Below, piece after piece: positions 2,053-62,939 of a stretch of 64,000 bases of DNA. The position numbers were made by a program, and so were the translations under genes. The stretch lies in the NCBI GenBank assembly GCA_976551045.1, contig CDPCPM010000023.1, forward strand, positions 2,666,001 through 2,730,000, given 5' to 3'. The stretch is from Glaucostegus cemiculus (lineage: Eukaryota). The number at the start of each line of letters is the position of its first letter. The stretch's first letter is position 1. The notes beneath the pieces are model-generated. The model ran no database searches. It saw only the letters and a program-made list of their open reading frames with translations, and was not told where the DNA came from.

Positions 2053-3305
2053 CGGAGAAACGAAGGACTGCAGACGCTGGAATTTAGATGAAAAACACGC
2101 AGATGCTGGAGGAACTCAACGGGCCAGGCAGCATCCGTGGAGAAAAGCAGGCGGTCAACATTTCAGGACCCTTCTTCAGAACTGAAGATAGGAAAAGGAG
2201 AAGCCCAATATATAAAAGGAAAAAGCAGAGCAGTGATAGGTGGACAAAAGAGGAGAGGCAGGGTGGGCACAAGGTGGCGATAGGTAGATGCAGGTAGTGA
2301 TAGGAAGGTGCTGGGGAGGAGGGGAGAGCAGATCCACCAGGGGATGGGTCAAAGGTAAGGAGAGAAATGAAATAAAAAGGGGAGAAGAAAGAGAGAGAGG
2401 CTAGGCAAGGGAAGAAGAGAAGAAGCATGGTTGGAGGGGTGGTTGTGGGGAAGGTGGGTGGGGATTACTTAAAGTGGGAGAATTCAATCTCCATGCCATT
2501 AGGCTGCAAGGTTCCAAGATGGAAAATGAGGTGCCGTTCCTCCAGTTTGCACTTGGAATTCTCCTGGCAGTGGAGAAGGCCGAGGACATCATACCAGTGA
2601 TAGTGTGGGAGGGGGAGTTGAAGTGACTGGCAATGGGGAGATGCAGATCGCGGTTACGGACAGAGCACAGCTGTTCTGCAAAATGGTCATCTAGTCTGCA
2701 TTTGGTCTCACCAATGTAGAGGAAGCATGCTTAGAGCACTGAATGCAGTAGGTGATATTAAGGGAGGTGCAGGTAAATTTCTGTCTCACCTGAAAGGACT
2801 GTTTGGGTCCCTGGATGGAGGTGGTGTAGGGGCAGGTGTTGCACTGACGACAGAGGCAGTGGAAAGTTCCTGGGGTGGGAGCAGGATGGGTGGGTGGGGG
2901 AGGGGAGGAGTGAACTAGGGAGTTGTGGAGAGCACAGCCCCTACGAAAGGCAGAAAGGGGTGAGAAGGGGAAGATATGCTTGGTGGTGGGGTCCCATTGG
3001 AAATGGTGGAAGTGACGGAGAATGATGTGTTGGATACGCAGGCTGGAGGGATGAAATGTGAGGACAAGGGGCACCCTATCCCTGTTGGGTCTGGAAGGGA
3101 TGGGGTGGGACCAGAGGTGCAGAAAATGGCAGAGATATGGGTGCACGCTCCCTCAACCATAGTCAGGGGGAAGCCCCAGTTAGAAAAGAAGTTGGACATC
3201 TCGGATGTCTTGGAGTGGAAAGCCTCATCATGAGAGTAGATGTGGCAGAGGAGGAGAAATTGAGGAAAAGGGATTACATCCTTGCCAGAGGCTGGGTGGG
3301 AGGAG
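2053..3305 (-). mobile_element. Penelope-like retroelement fragment (RT C-terminus plus GIY-YIG endonuclease, frameshifted)
   Basis: Minus-strand ORFs give DVIPFPQFL...FHSKTSEMSNFFSNWGFP, RVPLVLTFHP, the Cys-rich C-x-C-xx-CNTC linker and FTCTSLNITYCIQCSK, followed by YIGETK in another frame. The ctgcagacgctggaat...gctggaggaactca terminal segment recurs as short copies elsewhere (about 9780, 42000, 47385, 49770). Confidence 0.8.
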
Positions 3306-4520
3306 CTGAAGAAGTTCCTATGCACTACAGTTTTAAATCACTGCCCTGTTATTTTGTGACCATGTCCTCTCGTTTGAGTCTCTCCCACTTGAGGAAACAT
3401 CTCAATATCTACCCTTTCATGGTCCCTTATGATCTTACATGCTTCCAGGACCTTCCTTCATTTTACAAACCTTAAATCTGAAGTTAAATCTAACTTAGAA
3501 ACAATGGCTTTAGTCTCCTTAATTAGTTATAGGAAATTGTAGTTCATCCAACCAACATTGTATGTGAGGTAAACTGTGACAAACCTGAAGAATGTTTCAT
3601 AGAATTATTGAGCTCAGTGTTGTCAACATACAAGTGGAACCTTAAGCCAAATGTTATGCCAAAGAATACCCTGCAGATGAGAAATGGAAGTTGGGCCTAG
3701 GAGGCTCTGGGGGTTACTCCAGCATTTGGAAGAAAAATCATTGCAGGTGATATATTGATTATGGGTAGGATAAATAACAGAACCAAGCAGGAGTAGCTCC
3801 ACCCTTGGAGGAGGACAGTGTGGTATATTTTGTTGAAGGCTGCAGATAGTGAAGAAAGTTAGCCAATCACAGTTGAGGTTCCAAAGAACATCATTGCGAC
3901 TCTGATGAGGGCTATTTCACTCATGCGATGAGGCAGGAGACAAGACAGAAGGGACTCAGTTTTACAGTTGAGGATAAAATGGACATGGATTCAGAAAGCT
4001 TTAAGGATAGGAAAATAAGGTTGGAGGTGGTGAAGCAATTTGCAAGGGGGAGGGGGATTTCCACATGAGAGAGATGATAATGGATTTGAAAGGAAGGCGA
4101 ACTGTAAGCAAGAAGAGGGCGCCATTATCAAAATCAGTTAATAGTGAGGCCAGGAATAGAAGTAGGATGGTCAACCTCATGAGTGAAAAGAGGTAGATCT
4201 CATGGGGCAACATGAGCTTGTTACAGGGCAAAGCAAAAGATGGATGGGATCAAGGGAAGCATGTAATAACAGGACCAGGAGAGGATGAAAGATTTGGGAA
4301 AGCATGGTCCAGTGGACAGGAAAGAGAAAGGAAAACAGAAAGGCAGCTGTTTGGCTGGTCTTGATCTTTCAGTCACATGATACACTGAATGCAGTAGGTG
4401 ATATACGCATAAGCTCTTCATGTTGTAGGAAGTGACAATGTAGCTTCAGTGATGTAGAGAAACAAATAAAGTTTAATCCAGCCAAATCTGGCAATGTTTG
4501 GTTTAAAACAGTTTATCATG

Positions 4521-12074: not shown

Positions 12075-12240
12075 AATGCACATACAAACATATGTCTATG
12101 CATGTGTATATGTGCATGCATTGGCATGTGTGTATGTGTCTATATTTTGTGTAAGTCTATGTATCTGTGTGAGGGAATGCATTTGTGAGGACCAATGTGA
12201 ACATTTGTATATATACCCGTATGCAAGTATGTTTTGTGTC
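12075..12240 (+). repeat. Degenerate (TG/TA)n low-complexity tract upstream of the promoter; (GT)n plus a poly-G run at 12498-12525
   Basis: Direct reading. Confidence 0.75.
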
Positions 12241-12818
12241 AATCGTTGGGTTGTCAAATCGCCAGTCTTTCCTTCAGCCTAAAATCCGCTACCTTTTTAC
12301 AATATTAAGCTTGGCCTCAAAAATGCCCTGGATTGGAACAGCAAAGCATCCCTATTTATGAGCAGTATTGTGTTTTTTTTAGTTGGGAGTGCACCTGGAT
12401 GTCGGTACGTTTCATGAAACAACCTTCTGACAGCTGTCACGGTTTCTAGGACGGCGCACGGTGCCTGAAGGAGGCGGTGATGGTGTTTGGGGTGGTAGTG
12501 TGTGTGTGTGGGGGGGGGGGGGGGGTGATGGTGGCGAGAACCTGAATTCACGGCTGCGCAGCGTTGCTGCCAGCGGAGAGCAGTGAGCTCCTCCTTCCAA
12601 TGCGTTGTCTTTTCTTCCTCTCGCTCGCCTCCTTCCAGCAGCGCCGGCCTCCACCGAGCCAAACAATGTAAATGCAACACCTGATCGATCAATACCGAAG
12701 CTGTGTGATCCGTTTGCGCTGGAGAGGTGGTGGTTAAACCTGAGCCCGGGGAGAAGAAGAAAGGTCGGCGTTGGGGGGAAGGAAAGAGGCGGGGAGAAGG
12801 CGGAGGGGCGGCGGACGG

Positions 12819-12845
12819 ATGCCTGGCCGCTGTCCGCGGTGCTGA
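12819..12845 (+). other. 8-codon uORF (MPGRCPRC*) whose TGA directly abuts the upstream KCNC1 ATG
   Basis: ATG CCT GGC CGC TGT CCG CGG TGC TGA|ATG. Translation is unproven. Confidence 0.55.
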
Positions 12846-12846
12846 A
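12826..12846 (-). promoter_or_regulatory. RE1/NRSE (REST binding site)
   Basis: The minus strand reads TTCAGCACCGCGGACAGCGGC, 19/21 to the consensus TTCAGCACCACGGACAGCGCC, with both half-sites and the 2-nt spacer intact. Confidence 0.9.
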
Positions 12847-13502
12847 TGATCAGCTCAGTGCACGTCTCCACCTCCCGCGGCAGCACACCAGGGAAGCGAC
12901 CTCCCTCCGCGACATGTCTGATCGAGGAGATGGGCAAGGGCGACGACAACGATCGCATCGTGATAAACGTGGGAGGGACTAGGCACGAAACGTACCGGAG
13001 CACCCTGAAGACCCTGCCCGGCACTCGGCTGGCATGGCTCACCGAGCCCGGCGCCTTCGCCAATTTCGACTACGACCCCAAGGCGGGTGAGTTCTTCTTC
13101 GACCGCCACCCGGGGGTCTTCGCTCACATCCTGAACTACTACCGCACGGGCAAACTGCACTGCCCGGCCGACGTGTGCGGACCCCTGTACGAGGAGGAGA
13201 TCGCCTTCTGGGGCATCGATGAGACTGACGTGGAGCCTTGCTGCTGGATGACTTACCGGCAGCACCGAGACGCCGAGGAGGCTCTGGACAGCTTCGAGTC
13301 TCCCGATCTCAACAGCGGCGATGGTGACGGCGGCGGCGGCGGGGGAGACGGGGTCGGGGACTCGGAGGACGAGCTGGACACCAAGCGCCTCGCCCTCGGA
13401 GACTGTTCCCCTGAAGCCGGAGCGAAAGCCGGCTGGTGGAGGAAATGGCAACGCCGCATCTGGGCTCTCTTTGAAGACCCCTATTCCTCTAAATATGCAC
13501 GG
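12846..13502 (+). CDS. KCNC1: KCNC1/Kv3.1 coding exon 1: 28-aa N-terminal extension, T1 (BTB) tetramerisation domain and T1-S1 linker. The canonical Kv3.1 Met is at 12930.
   Basis: [37 protein letters not shown]...FDYDP...[37 protein letters not shown]...[21 protein letters not shown]...KRLAL...[15 protein letters not shown] is Kv3.1-like, including the compact T1 without the Kv3.2/3.4 insert and the Zn-binding HX5CX20CC motif. Phase-0 donor CGG|GTAAGG at 13502/13503. Confidence 0.96.
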
Positions 13503-16500
13503 GTAAGGGAGAAATACTCAACATAGCTCTGCAGCATTTACATCTGAACTACATCTCAAGAACCTGTTGGTCAAATGAATGGGTAGGGGGAGTTCAATTT
13601 CTAGAAACACCTTAAATTAATGAATATAGGGGACAAGTTTCCATTGAATTAATATCGTTAGCAGCAAGAAACGATCGCGATTTGGGGAGGCGCGGGTGGT
13701 GGGGGAGGCTGGGAGATATGTGTGGCAGGGAGAACCAACGGTGCAAACTACATAGAGTGCTTGGGAATGCAGAATAATTGTATGAGGATTCTAGGAGAAC
13801 CAGACTGCCATCCTGTTCTCCCGCTTTGGTACAGCGAGATGAGAAGACTGCAGATTGCAGCAGGTTCATGAAGCCAGGTCGTGGTTATAGCAAAACTGCG
13901 TGGACTACCAATAGATGTACCCTCGCTCGGCACATACTGTGGGTTAGAGGTGTCAGATATGTGGTTCAGATGAGCGCAAAAGTCCATTTTTTTCAGCACC
14001 CGGTAGCCTTTGCCGAGGGACGGTCTTCCGGTGGGATTTTTGTTTTAAAAAGATACAAATATTGATAATTGTCAATTAAATTGGTATGTTTGTTGGACGG
14101 TTTCAAGCATCTGGGTATATTGGAAAGCGGGGTTATTTTTAATTCGGAGAACTAGTCCTTCTGATCGAAGCCACGGAGATTACGCACAGCAGGAGTGCGT
14201 TTTAAATTGGGGCTCATTGATATTCCACAGGCGCACACTGTGGGTGCAGACTGCAGAGGAATCCAAGGGTCGTCACTGTAACCTCACGTCCTGGTTTTAA
14301 ATACATTTGAAAAAAAATATGGATCATCTTACTGAAGGGAGATAATGAATCACGACATTGTGCTTCTGTTTTTTTTTAAAGAAACTCGGGCTAGGAATAG
14401 CAAGAACAACACCAACAATATTTGCTGCAAAGACCCAAGCACCATTACAGTAAAGACATCCACAAGTGCCAGTGTACATTCAGCAGTTCTACAGTTCGTG
14501 AGATTTAACGTAAAATTGCTGGTATTTATTTATCCAGTCTTAAAGCTCCTGAGAGCGACTGTGATGAGGCCCCAGCTTTAAAACCTGCTGTTTTTTGTTA
14601 TTGTTGTACAAGATGTTGTGATACATTAATATCGCCGGCCTCAGAAAATGAAGGCTATCGATTTTCAGATTATTTGGAGACTGATGGCAGTCTGTATGTT
14701 CCGGACAAGCACTCAAACAACTCAAACACCTTAGCGCCCAAAGAATAAAACCACTTATTTCAGATTTGCTAAGAATCAGATTTCTGGGAGACTGATATGC
14801 ACAATGCAAAATTAGAAACAGTATTAACTGACAATGCAACCGATATTGAAGTGCCGCATCTAATTCACGTTCTCCTGCTAATATGCTAGCACACAGAACG
14901 TTCATTGCGCTGGTTTCTGAACGAATTTAGGTACGGTTACAGGGATATGGGAGAAGGCAGAAATACATACAGTGAAACAGACAGCATGTAAACAAGCATG
15001 TATGCGTATATCTTATATATCTCTAGTCATTCGCAGTATTTTTGCATACTACTTGTTGGATTGCGTCCAACCCAGTGTCATTCCTTCTCCTTCCCGTGCA
15101 TAAAGGTCCATCCTGAACAAAGCTTATCAACCCTTGTATGTGTTTGTATGGAAGGTTCACCAGGGACACTGGGATGTTTTTTCCAAGATGTCTAACGTGA
15201 TTCCTTCCGCTGTTATTTCAAGGAACAGTTCTTCTCATGCATCTACCTCTCACTGCACCAGAAACATGTTTCTGGGTGTTATTTTACTGTACTGCCTCAC
15301 AGAAATCCTGGAGAAAGGCACTAAGGGGCAAGGTCGAGGCTGTCAGGAAGCAGTGAGTGTTTCCTCGATGCTCCAGCAGGTGGTACCTGGCACTACGTCC
15401 GATTTTCCTGAAATCTCTGCAGTGGGAAAGGCGAATAGCTGATTAAACCAGCCGCAGAACACAGACAGACAACGTCGTCGCCCAGAAGCGATTCTTTGAA
15501 GCTTGGAAGTTAACCCTTTGGTCTGATGCATTGCTCAGAAAACGATGTCATCATTTGACCTTGAATCTGAAATAATGCGCCTTCTTGAACATTGCATAGC
15601 TCAAGAACGAGACTAGCCCTATAGATTGTCCACAAAATGCTGCTGGAGCTGGTGTGGATTCTGTATCCCAAGAAATTAGAAACAAATGACCTTCCTGGGT
15701 AGAATGCCCCAACCAACATCGACCAGACAGAGTTCTTTTCAGCAGCAATGTAGCAGTTATCTGGGCTTAATTAACGCAGTGTTGTCGGTAGCATATACAG
15801 GGGAAAATGTCTATTCAGTGAGAGAAACAAAAAAAAATAAGGGAAGAGTTTGACGACGGAGGCATAAATGATAATATGCATGGACCTCCCGGAATCAATG
15901 TTTATAATTAATTCCACATTTAGTGAGCACCTAAGAGCGTTTACATTGAATTGTTTTGCTGTCTGTCGCGTTTTCATGAATTCACAATTTAGTGGGTACC
16001 AATACAGAGCAAGTAAGATAACTGCACATTAACAACGAGACCAGACGTACTGAATGGCATTCTGAAGGACTGGGTTAGGCATGGAGAGGGTAAAGGAGGG
16101 AGAGGAGGAGAGGGGAATATGCATGGACTGGTTTCCTTCCAAGGAGAATAAACATATGGAGGGCGATGTTTGGAAAGAGCTTTGAACAGGTTAGGTGGTT
16201 TTTCATTTGACCTTCCTCAATGTCGCTAAATCAATAACATGACAATATCTAGCCGGCTAATTCTTCACTACGGTCATGAGAAGCAATCTCTTAAGGAGAA
16301 AATATGTTAGCCACAACCTTTGATCTAGTTGATGGTGGAGGTGGGTTGCAGATAAGAGTGGGATTGTTGGGGGAGAAGAAGAACTACAAGGCACGTTAGT
16401 TCTAATGTCATGCATGTGACCAGCCTCCCAGCCTCTCATCGTTCTCAGGCCACTTAACCAAACAACTTCTTGCCACGGGTGCCTCTTTAAAGGAATATTA

Positions 16501-39130: not shown

Positions 39131-40837
39131 ATCTTGGATTTCTATACTGGACTTCTAATTGTTCAATAATCAGCATAGTACCCAATACATACAGTGATCG
39201 CTAATTACTTCTGCTTACCTAGCACATTGCACTGATTATGGTAATGACCTGCTTGCTAAATGTATCAATGCAAAATAGTATAATGGACAATTCTTAACTC
39301 AGTACATTATGTTAGGTGGCCATTGATTACCATAATACACTGGACTAGATCCTTGATGATCACTGGAATCACTGGGTTCTGTATTATGCTGTAATAGTAA
39401 TTAATTAATTAGATTAATATTGTACCAGCTAAATTTAGAAATAATAATTCAGAATCCGGAAAATGCTCTTAGTTTGGCAGTTATTCCTCTGAGGTGATCA
39501 TTGATAACTGTAATATAGTGTGATAGGTAATCAATACTGCAACACACTAATAATGATTGTGTGCATTACAATGCAGTGCTTTCTTACTGATTGTTGAAAT
39601 GTTCACTGGTGACTGATAACTGGATATTCTTTAATTAGTGTGAGGTGTACTGGTGAATCACATTGCAGTAGTAACTTGCACTATATGATCCCGAACTATT
39701 GTAACGTAACTCTGCCCTGAATAAGCTTTTACTTGTGGATATAAATAACACTGGTGATTATAACAAGCTATGCATTCACTCACTTAATGTTGTAATATAC
39801 TTCTTAAGTTACAGAATGATACAACAACAAAGAAGGCAATTCAGCCTATGCCAGCTTTGAAAGAGCCTCCCAATTATCAATTATCTGCAAATTTTCTCTT
39901 TCATGCATTTATCCAAGTTACGTTTGGAAATGAGAACAGAATTGTTTCCACCACCTTTCCAAGCAATACAAAACAGCTCACTATGTTAAAATAAATTCTC
40001 ATCTCATCTCTGTTTTTACTGCCAATTAATTTGAATCTTTTCCCTCTGGCTACCTACCCTTTTGTCACCACAGCAGTTTTTCCTTATTTTCTCAATGCAC
40101 TTCAGATTTTGCACACCACTATTCACTCTCCCTTAATCTGCACTGCTCTTAAGAACAACCTCAGCTTCTCTTAATGAAGATTGAAGTTCAGTATTACAGT
40201 TATCAATGATCACCCCAGAGGAGTAACTGCCAAACTCACAAATGAAATTCTGTATTCCTACAGTTTTTTTGTGAATCTCCTCTGTAACCTCTCTATGGCC
40301 TTGAAATCTCTTCTAGAATATGATGTCAAAGAATTGGCTATAATCTTCAAAAGAGCACCGATCTTAATGCTGACTCGGAGGAGGCACCTTGATACAGTAT
40401 CAAAAACTGTTCATCGCTACGCTCTGCTTTCTGTCCTTTAGCCAATTTCATAACTCTAAGCTGACTAATATAGTGATAGCTTCCCCATTGAAACTCAACC
40501 CACATGTCCCATTTCATTTCCAGGCAATGATTAATGACTCACACTCTGGAACCAAAAGCACACATATTTAGTGACATCATCCTTCCACATATTTAGTAAA
40601 TTGTTAGAAAACTGCTGGATAGTTTAGTAAAAGAGCACATTTAGGAAGAGGCATAGGGCATATCCTGGGAATTAGAGACACTGGAAGGAAACATAAAAGA
40701 ACATCCGATTAGCATGGATTTCAAAATTGAAAATCTTGTCTGACCAACCTTATTGAACATAATAGGGAATAGCTGATATGGTTGTAGATGTAATTTATCT
40801 AGATTTTCAAAAAGGCTTCACAGCATTCTCTGGAGTG

Positions 40838-41250
40838 GTGGAGGCTGAAAGGAGGCCTCATAGAAGTTTATAAGATTGTGAGGGGCATGGATAGAGTGGA
40901 CAGCCAGTGTCTTCTTCCCAGGGTTGAAATGTCTCATACTGGAGGGCGTGCATTTAAGGTGAGATGGGGTAAGTTCAAAGGAAATGTGTGGCCAAAGTTT
41001 TTATTTACACTGGGAGTGGTAGTTGCCTGGAATACATTGCCAGGGGTGGTAGTGGAGGCAAATACAACAGAGGTGTTTAAGAGGCTCTTAGATAGGCACA
41101 TGGCTATGCAGAGAATGACAGGATATGAACTTTGTGTAGGTAGAATGGATTACATTAGTTAGGTGTTTAATTGTTAGTTTAATGAGTTTGGCACAATATT
41201 GTGGGCTAAAGGGCCTCTTCCTGTGCTGCGCTGTACTGTTCTATGTTTGT
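40838..41250 (+). mobile_element. CR1 LINE 3' end inserted into an older CR1 fragment (40700-41560)
   Basis: RGMDRVDSQCLLP...WNTLPGVVVEA...FKRLLDRHM and a gggctaaagggcct hairpin with tail. DFQK on the left and FAGDTK on the right belong to the host element. Confidence 0.8.
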
Positions 41251-51997: not shown

Positions 51998-52931
51998 TAC
52001 TGTGCTTTTGCTTCACTTTTCTTCATCTTGGTGTCAATCAGCACCTTCTGCCTCGAGACCCATGAGGCATTTAACCCAATCGTTAACAGAACGGAGATTG
52101 TAAGGAATGGAAATGAAACCCGGATGGAAACTATTCAGGAAACAGAAACAGAAGCCTTCTTAATGTACATCGAAGGAGTCTGTGTGGTATGGTTTACCTT
52201 TGAATTTCTCATGAGGATCACTTTCTGTCCCAACAAAGTGGAGTTTATCAAGAATACTCTCAATATCATAGACTTTGTCGCCATTCTGCCCTTCTATCTG
52301 GAGGTAGGACTCAGTGCTTTGTCTTCCAAAGCTGCTAAGGATGTTCTGGGCTTCCTGAGAGTGGTTCGCTTTGTCCGAATCCTGCGAATCTTCAAGCTGA
52401 CCCGTCATTTTGTAGGACTGAGAGTTTTAGGACATACTTTGCGTGCAAGCACCAATGAATTCCTGCTGCTCATCATCTTCTTGGCACTTGGCGTCCTGAT
52501 ATTTGCCACCATGATCTACTATGCTGAGAGGATAGGTGCTAATCCCCATGATCTGAGAGCCGATAAACACACACACTTCAAAAATATTCCGATTGGATTT
52601 TGGTGGGCCGTAGTAACCATGACTACACTTGGCTATGGAGACATGTATCCTCAGACATGGTCGGGCATGTTGGTAGGAGCCCTCTGTGCTCTTTCGGGCG
52701 TGCTGACCATTGCTATGCCAGTCCCTGTCATTGTCAATAATTTTGGAATGTATTACTCCTTAGCGATGGCCAAACAAAAATTACCAAAGAAGAAAAAGAA
52801 GCATATACCGAGACCGCCCCAGCTGGGATCCCCCAATTATTGTAAATCTGGTGTAAACTCTCCACATCACAGTACACAGAGTGACACATGCCCACTCGCT
52901 CAGGAAGAGATTTTAGAAATAAACAGAGCAG
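51998..52931 (+). CDS. KCNC1: KCNC1 coding exon 2: S1-S6, pore and proximal C-terminus (spliced form)
   Basis: Acceptor ttttccttcacAG|TAC (51996-51997) restores [13 protein letters not shown]. Contains S4 [18 protein letters not shown], pore [13 protein letters not shown], the Kv3-specific S6 MPVP, two S1-S2 N-glycosylation sequons (NRT, NET) and [26 protein letters not shown]. Phase-1 donor GCAG|GTAGGA at 52931/52932. Confidence 0.97.
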
Positions 52932-52963
52932 GTAGGAAACCTCTTAGAGGAATGTCCATCTGA
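52931..52963 (+). CDS. KCNC1: Kv3.1a-specific C-terminus made by read-through of the exon 2 donor ([10 protein letters not shown]-stop)
   Basis: The ORF continues through the donor as [10 protein letters not shown], matching the mammalian Kv3.1a tail as I recall it. Product is 540 aa from 12846 or 512 aa from 12930. Confidence 0.93.
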
Positions 52964-59150: not shown

Positions 59151-59348
59151 ATTTTAAACAGAACGGTGATGCAGCAAATGCAGCATTGGCAAACGAAGAT
59201 TGTCCTCATATTGACCAGGCACTGACGCCTGAAGATCACCTCCCCTTCACTCGTTCTAACACCAGGGAGAGGAATGCCAGAGACGGGCCCTGCTTCCTCT
59301 TATCAACCGGGGAATTTGCATGTCCACCCGATGGAGGAATAAGAAAGG
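59151..59348 (+). CDS. KCNC1: KCNC1 exon 3 (Kv3.1b-type distal C-terminus), not in the ORF track
   Basis: AG at 59149-59150, 198 nt, phase 1-1. Translates [66 protein letters not shown], versus mammalian [63 protein letters not shown]. Donor G|GTACGT at 59348/59349. Confidence 0.95.
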
Positions 59349-62090: not shown

Positions 62091-62230
62091 GTTTTGAAAA
62101 CTCAAGGAGCCTAAGCAACAGAGCTGGCATGAGCAGAAATATACTAAAATTGCCTTCAGTGTCTTCTTCGCTCTACAGCTCTCCTTGTCCATTGAGGCTT
62201 TCTCCGTCTCCCATACCATCCATTTTATAG
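62091..62230 (+). CDS. KCNC1: Alternative last coding exon encoding a Kv3.2b-like tail [46 protein letters not shown]
   Basis: Pyrimidine tract plus AG (ctttgcatttttcctacataaAG, 62089-62090). Phase 1 fits the exon 3 donor, and the frame is open to TAG at 62228-62230. Colinear with Kv3.2b [45 protein letters not shown]. Confidence 0.85.
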
Positions 62231-62874: not shown

Positions 62875-62939
62875 ATTTCTGCAAAGGCAGCCCTGTCATT
62901 GCTAAATATATGCAAGCAGGGGCAGTCAGAGTAACTTAA
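62875..62939 (+). CDS. KCNC1: KCNC1 last coding exon of Kv3.1b ([21 protein letters not shown])
   Basis: Acceptor ttctttgcatgcAG (62873-62874), phase 1, TAA at 62937-62939. Matches mammalian [21 protein letters not shown]. Full b isoform is 617 aa, or 589 aa from 12930. Confidence 0.94.

Follow-up and report, generated by a model that had tools for sequence, protein, structure and literature searches.

The closest described counterpart of the peptide considered here is the inactivation gate of Kv3.4, which is formed by the first 28 residues of that protein and in which C6, C24, S8, S9, S15 and S21 are regulatory (PMC12184066, PMC6088260). A basic face made up of R11, R13, K14, K18 and K26 around S8 affects the inactivation rate; the Kv3.4 ball behaves otherwise than a simple point charge would, and it is the local positive charge near S8 that sets the rate (PMC2229409). 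Kv3.4 inactivates with a time constant of 12-13 ms, and its C6S form still inactivates, with partial loss of hemin sensitivity (PMC7239824). In Shaker, the ball's non-polar end plugs the pore in an extended form (PMC12460158); whether a Kv3.4 ball requires a compact basic fold or an extended non-polar tip was left open in PMC12184066. As for Kv3.3, fast inactivation of the zebrafish protein is abolished without its N-terminal extension (PMC2933717), a finch Kv3.3 without a ball has been predicted (PMC10241522), and initiation at the second Met through leaky scanning, which removes the ball, has been described (PMC9110028, citing Fernandez 2003).

A ball on the Kv3.1 of cartilaginous fishes is also already known. 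A preprint (bioRxiv 10.1101/2025.09.21.677649, section 14 and the legend to Fig. 11C) describes it and argues for N-type inactivation in the ancestral vertebrate Kv3, with loss of the ball early in Kv3.2 and late in Kv3.1; mammalian Kv3.1, sustained and fast-spiking, represents, as the preprint already has it, likely a derived state reached through loss of an ancestral ball. An earlier note on the DNA described below had made the same observation and drawn the same inference, and could not confirm a previous description, which the preprint supplies. The text of that preprint section holds no recording of such a channel and takes up neither the start context nor the disappearance of Cys6 and basic residues, and its figure and supplements may show the divergence; the worn state of the ball and the arrangement of start sites, which we report here, are additions beyond that text. 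In the literature searched, most subscription papers being outside the search, no recording of a chondrichthyan Kv3.1 was found, nor any second paper that links Kv3.1, an inactivation ball and cartilaginous fishes.

A homolog of the Kv3.3/Kv3.4 ball ahead of the canonical Met

The window, by which we mean the whole 64,000-nucleotide stretch of Glaucostegus cemiculus DNA that was analysed, contains the KCNC1 gene laid out in Table 1. The ATG at 12846 begins a frame of 226 codons, and a second in-frame ATG (Met29) follows at 12930, after 28 open codons. In a phmmer search of the PDB with residues 1-38, the Kv3.4 inactivation peptide (1B4G/1B4I/1ZTN) aligned without gaps over residues 1-29 (E 5.8e-6) and was the only significant match among the 4 matches listed. 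Identity between this KCNC1 peptide and the Kv3.4 ball was 18/28; since the next best of the 127,828 six-frame 28-mers in the window reached 10/28, chance resemblance can be rejected. These sequence comparisons show the 28-residue extension, which directly precedes the second Met as it does in Kv3.4, to be a homolog of the Kv3.3/Kv3.4 inactivation ball. R11, P19-P20-S21 and C24 of Kv3.4 are kept in it, and, as in fish Kv3.3 (zebrafish kcnc3a), it lies between the first and second in-frame Met. The earlier note's account of this region was borne out with respect to residues 1-28, the reading frame, the ungapped 18/28 alignment with a second Met at position 29, and the presence of two Kv3.1-type C-terminal tails.

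Table 1. Positions of KCNC1 features, numbered from the first letter of the window
Feature	Position	Strand
N-terminal extension, 28 codons, Kv3.3/Kv3.4 ball homolog, tip kept, basic middle worn	12846..12929	+
Met29, equivalent to the Met that starts Kv3.1 in bony vertebrates; context strong (G at -3, G at +4)	12930..12932	+
8-codon uORF in CDS frame, its stop (12843-12845) adjoining Met1	12819..12845	+
Four more upstream ATGs (12528, 12600, 12666, 12672), CDS frame, all stop-closed; candidate leader	12528..12738	+
Exon 1 coding part: ball, T1/BTB domain (residues 38-132), linker; GT donor at 13503	12846..13502	+
CpG island across 5' end; CpG o/e 0.71-0.96 vs 0.25 in window	12251..13750	.
Exon 2, encoding the S1-S6 transmembrane core and the proximal C terminus	51998..52931	+
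Read-through tail giving Kv3.1a C terminus	52932..52963	+
Exon 3, long C-terminal forms	59151..59348	+
Alternative last coding exon, ends PSIL	62091..62230	+
Alternative last coding exon, ends AVRVT	62875..62939	+

All KCNC1 exons have GT/AG borders. Exon 1 is identical to that of Narcine at 216/219 positions and to those of Hypanus and Mobula at 215/219, which marks the source as a ray-like elasmobranch. The AVRVT-ending last exon is, we assume, of the Kv3.1b type. The PSIL tail constitutes a third C-terminal form, and tails like it occur in Kv3.1 records from turtle, bird and teleost. Elsewhere in the window, long frames were noted at 2401-3337 and 40803-41162, and these we take to resemble decayed retrotransposon pieces.

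Assignment of the gene to Kv3.1

Trees and tail, together with a partial agreement in synteny, identify the gene as KCNC1 (Kv3.1). In an exon 2 tree of 44 rows, from which the ball was excluded, the window sequence fell in a chondrichthyan clade (99/99) within Kv3.1 (90/91). The gene could in principle be KCNC4 or KCNC3, or recent gene conversion could have given it the ball of a paralog. On exon 2 alone, an AU test rejected a Kv3.4 grouping (p 0.036); it did not reject a Kv3.3 grouping (p 0.24), and this second result would fit such an origin. Over 540 columns from T1 onward, however, the Kv3.3 grouping was rejected (p 0.0095), as were groupings with chondrichthyan Kv3.4 (p 2.8e-8) and bony Kv3.4 (p 4.4e-7); this tree again left out the ball, used a near-identical Narcine protein as a stand-in for the window gene, and contained 19 of 20 rows, Polypterus Kv3.3 having dropped out. 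The read-through tail is identical to human Kv3.1a at 33/33 residues (PDB 7PHH chain residues 479-511).

Four first exons of Kv3 genes are present in the genome: that of the window gene, two with canonical balls on contigs C226 (Kv3.3-type) and C141 (Kv3.4-type), and one without a ball on C28, which occupies the Kv3.2 slot. Upstream of KCNC1, 57 kb away and on the same strand, is a TPH1-like gene (G000:C23:2610014-2621196) that is closer to TPH1 (135 bits) than to TPH2 (127 bits); a long SPOC frame of the RBM15 type is found 18 kb from the C141 gene, and the contig of the C28 gene also carries another hydroxylase gene and two myogenic factors. We take it that, in human, neighbours of these types mark KCNC1, KCNC4 and KCNC2, respectively, and that human KCNC1 is accompanied by TPH1, SERGEF and MYOD1. 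MyoD was absent from C23, the contig of the window, and was located on C60; among 72 matches, none was an RCC1-type (SERGEF) exon on C23; and when long ORFs were scanned by eye over 57 kb upstream and 140 kb downstream, the TPH exons were the only other recognisable gene. Synteny agrees with KCNC1 for the TPH1-like neighbour and does not for the other two, which, compared with the human order, suggests a local rearrangement.

The missing MyoD neighbour may be set beside the exon 2 result as a point in favour of a KCNC4 or KCNC3 origin or of gene conversion. Against these stand the 540-column tests and the separate canonical Kv3.3- and Kv3.4-type genes on C226 and C141, and at the third positions of its codons the ball agrees with the two paralogs in only 13/28 and 12/28 cases, which argues against recent conversion. 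Such an origin is already largely refuted, and we regard it as hardly credible. The gene identity put forward in the earlier note is therefore upheld by the trees built without the ball, the Kv3.1a tail, the TPH1-like neighbour and the existence of separate Kv3 paralogs; placement in KCNC4, which that note named as fatal to its reading, was rejected, and of the synteny that it wished to see confirmed the TPH1-like part was found and the remainder was not. The gene and its bony-vertebrate Kv3.1 orthologs resemble each other in exon 2 (~91% identical), in the Kv3.1a tail and in their alternative C termini, and differ in that the latter have no ball.

Further aromatic amino acid hydroxylase genes were observed at C218:124102-184858 (two, adjacent) and C23:5003543-5032184 (one). 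From their exon patterns, the C218 pair are likely PAH and a second TH, and the C23 gene is likely TH.

Distribution and wear of the ball

The same peptide starts database KCNC1 proteins of at least 9 elasmobranch genera (Narcine, Hypanus, Mobula, Amblyraja, Carcharodon, Scyliorhinus, Mustelus, Stegostoma and Chiloscyllium). In Callorhinchus, an older model carries a more diverged ball (13/28 identity with Kv3.4), and the current RefSeq models begin at the second Met. Among 104 retrieved proteins classed as Kv3.1, the ball was present on 20, all chondrichthyan, and on none of the other 84, which comprise 6 chondrichthyan records (no ball at the annotated start) and 78 others; the count of 0/78 outside the chondrichthyans applies to a set from which coelacanth and lungfish Kv3.1 are absent. 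The 6 records (of 26 chondrichthyan) without a ball at the annotated start include the RefSeq Callorhinchus models and one Rhincodon isoform, and our sample of elasmobranch balls is biased towards records annotated from Met1.

A canonical ball is also present on a hagfish Kv3 (P0281; 24/28 identity with Kv3.4). For this reason the ball is likely ancestral to vertebrate Kv3, in support of what was proposed both in the earlier note and in bioRxiv 10.1101/2025.09.21.677649.

Many RefSeq proteins with canonical balls bear the name "KCNC1-like", and these were considered as possible further Kv3.1 cases. Such records (from reptiles, amphibians and sturgeons as well as sharks) were rejected: the 7 placed in the tree were Kv3.3 or Kv3.4, and none was classed as Kv3.1 among the retrieved proteins. 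The tree assigns to Kv3.3 or Kv3.4 many proteins so named in sharks, amphibians, squamates and paddlefish, and record names alone mislead. Separately, a partial teleost kcnc1b model (P0244) has Cys-Leu before the canonical Met, at ball positions 24-25, with similar residues after it; this leader is possibly a decayed ball in a teleost Kv3.1, although a single record makes a weak case.

The elasmobranch ball has changed at residues that are invariant in all the other Kv3 balls retrieved, and for that reason it could help in dissecting how the Kv3.4 ball works. Cys6, Arg13, Lys14, Ser15, Lys22 and Lys26 were replaced in 10/10 elasmobranch balls. Position 6 was H in 7 of these and Q in 3, and C in 154/154 other ball-bearing Kv3 proteins, all of which also kept R13, K14 and C24; the Kv3.3 balls, with C6, R13 and K14 intact, differ from the window ball accordingly. 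Tyr10 of Kv3.4 is also replaced in the window. Net charge over residues 1-28 was +1 in 10/10 elasmobranch balls, compared with +3 to +5 in 154/154 others (+4 in Kv3.4 itself), and the basic cluster R11/R13/K14/K18/K22/K26 has given way to a total of 3 basic residues in the window ball. Thus C24 of the Cys6/Cys24 redox pair remains without its partner. The PKC positions S8, S9, S15 and S21 read S, T, P and S in the window, and S8 is A in two sharks. Pfam PF11601 matched neither the window nor the Callorhinchus ball, whereas the two paralog balls scored 43.5 and 36.6 bits. The peptide is carried by a different paralog from that of Kv3.4. Given its cysteine, charge and Pfam results, it should not be filed with the canonical Kv3.3/Kv3.4 balls; it may still work like one.

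Wear was uneven along the peptide. The tip (residues 1-7) matched Kv3.4 at 6/7 positions in both the window and Callorhinchus, and the middle (residues 8-18) at 4/11 and 1/11, respectively; by Fisher's test this contrast was significant in Callorhinchus (p 0.002) and not in the window (p 0.07). The His or Gln at position 6 makes for a less hydrophobic tip (mean 1.4 vs 2.2), which counts against the interpretation of a worn ball that we prefer. The ball diverged from Kv3.4 more than expected from T1 (10/28 vs 7/90, p 0.0008), and the Kv3.3 paralog ball did not (p 0.5). Within elasmobranchs, the p-distance of the ball was 0.086, compared with 0.008 for its own T1, ~10 times faster, and this too counts against our interpretation; the paralog balls had p-distances of 0.041 (Kv3.3) and 0.071 (Kv3.4), or 2.4 and 1.5 times those of their own T1. 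All 10 elasmobranch balls nevertheless had the length of 28 codons, and the stops and frameshifts that the earlier note would have counted against its reading were absent from 10/10 sequences, as were indels of any kind; 21/28 columns were invariant, and shark and ray balls differed on average by 2.6 residues of 28.

The new and stable elasmobranch consensus, reached after loss of residues invariant elsewhere, together with a composition that is still rich in Ser, Thr and Pro, could indicate that the extension is translated and selected for a role other than pore block, in trafficking, T1 contact or phosphorylation-dependent gating. The best-kept part is nevertheless the tip, the portion that in Shaker serves as plug, and we encountered no positive evidence for another role, so that a repurposed extension seems to us distinctly improbable. 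It is somewhat less remote, and still improbable, that the long form dominates and that the ball functions as in Kv3.4, giving a fast transient (A-type) Kv3.1. The 18/28 identity, equal length and retained R11, P19-P20-S21 and C24 would be consistent with such function, as would the net charge over residues 1-25, still +3 beside the +2 quoted for ShakerB, and balls of different families need little identity, that of Kv3.4 not being a simple point charge (PMC2229409). On the other side, R13, K14 and K26 of the basic face are gone, the net charge lies below that of every other ball retrieved, PF11601 failed to match, and the start context is poor. With Cys6, half of the basic residues and one PKC serine lost and Met1 in a poor context, an A-type Kv3.1 is doubtful, and the earlier note's suggestion of one, on the evidence of these residues, was probably overstated.

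Translation start and predicted behaviour of the channel

The context of Met1 is weak (T at -3, A at +4), in contrast to that of Met29, and the uORF stop, which the earlier note does not mention, touches Met1. Contexts of Met1 in the two paralogs are also weak (C at -3), and neither paralog, the Kv3.3-type gene included, has an abutting uORF. Indications that Met1 is in the mRNA and used consist of RefSeq models and the CpG island. A search of RNA and contigs over 12200-13040, in 4 of 24 listed runs, gave nothing covering Met1: in raw RNA run X23, 0/11,053,536 records (~18% of the run) matched that interval; X3 gave none; X1 gave one contig at 12217-12480, which is probably DNA; and X2 gave two contigs at 12585-12750, for which an RNA origin is a guess. 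The upstream non-coding DNA is ~90% alike in a relative (17 differences in 166 bases), and the alignment ends at 12750. As a separate observation, the 350 bases upstream of Met1 contain 5 ATGs, every one of them in the CDS frame and stop-closed, an arrangement expected about 1 time in 80 for any shared frame and noticed post hoc.

Several of these observations would be expected if the ball were a silent vestige, with nearly all protein initiated at Met29, an ordinary sustained Kv3.1 as the product, and the 84 bases serving as leader in a slowly evolving CpG island: the contrasting contexts of the two Met codons, the uORF stop touching Met1, the faster evolution of the ball than of T1, the database records that begin at Met29, and the similarity of the upstream non-coding DNA itself in the relative. 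Both canonical paralogs, however, also have weak Met1 contexts; sharks, rays and a chimaera retain Met1, the tip and the exact length (the chimaera with a diverged middle; ball 12/28, tip 5/7); and the point at which the upstream DNA of the relative ceases to align suggests indels there, whereas the ball has none in 10/10. We consider a silent vestige unlikely, though it deserves to be taken seriously.

The explanation that we prefer, and to which we give slightly better than even credence, is that this KCNC1 carries a worn and likely ancestral ball which, likely present on only part of the subunits, would confer N-type inactivation that is slow and partial and whose redox switch is weakened. 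Starting from the open 28-codon ball homolog and the Kv3.1 identity of the gene, the ball would have descended from the vertebrate ancestor, with loss early in Kv3.2 and later in bony-vertebrate Kv3.1. Scanning ribosomes would often pass the weak Met1, or be drawn off by the uORF that adjoins it, and initiate at Met29, so that tetramers would mix ball-bearing and ball-less subunits. The retained non-polar tip would plug the open pore, the lower positive charge would slow its on-rate, and mixing with Met29 subunits would make inactivation partial. Loss of Cys6 would remove much of the oxidation control; S8, T9 and S21 may preserve control by PKC. The likely outcome, predicted from the residues and start sites, would be that long subunits mix with Met29 subunits and that inactivation is slow and partial, and not a Kv3.4-like A-current.

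More tentatively, and as a possibility rather than an expectation, shark and ray Kv3.1 may be a living intermediate in the loss of a ball and chain, in which the plug was kept while the redox cysteine and half of the charge were shed, the uORF sets the subunit ratio, and start choice tunes the channel between transient and sustained behaviour. If this were so, the elasmobranch channel would offer a natural test of whether a compact basic fold is needed or an extended non-polar tip alone suffices, the question raised in PMC12184066.

Ball drift was noted a second time among sharks, in two Kv3.4-type proteins of carpet sharks (P0294 and P0295), whose balls are altered at residues 16-26; in one of them the acidic run ahead of the second Met is lengthened.
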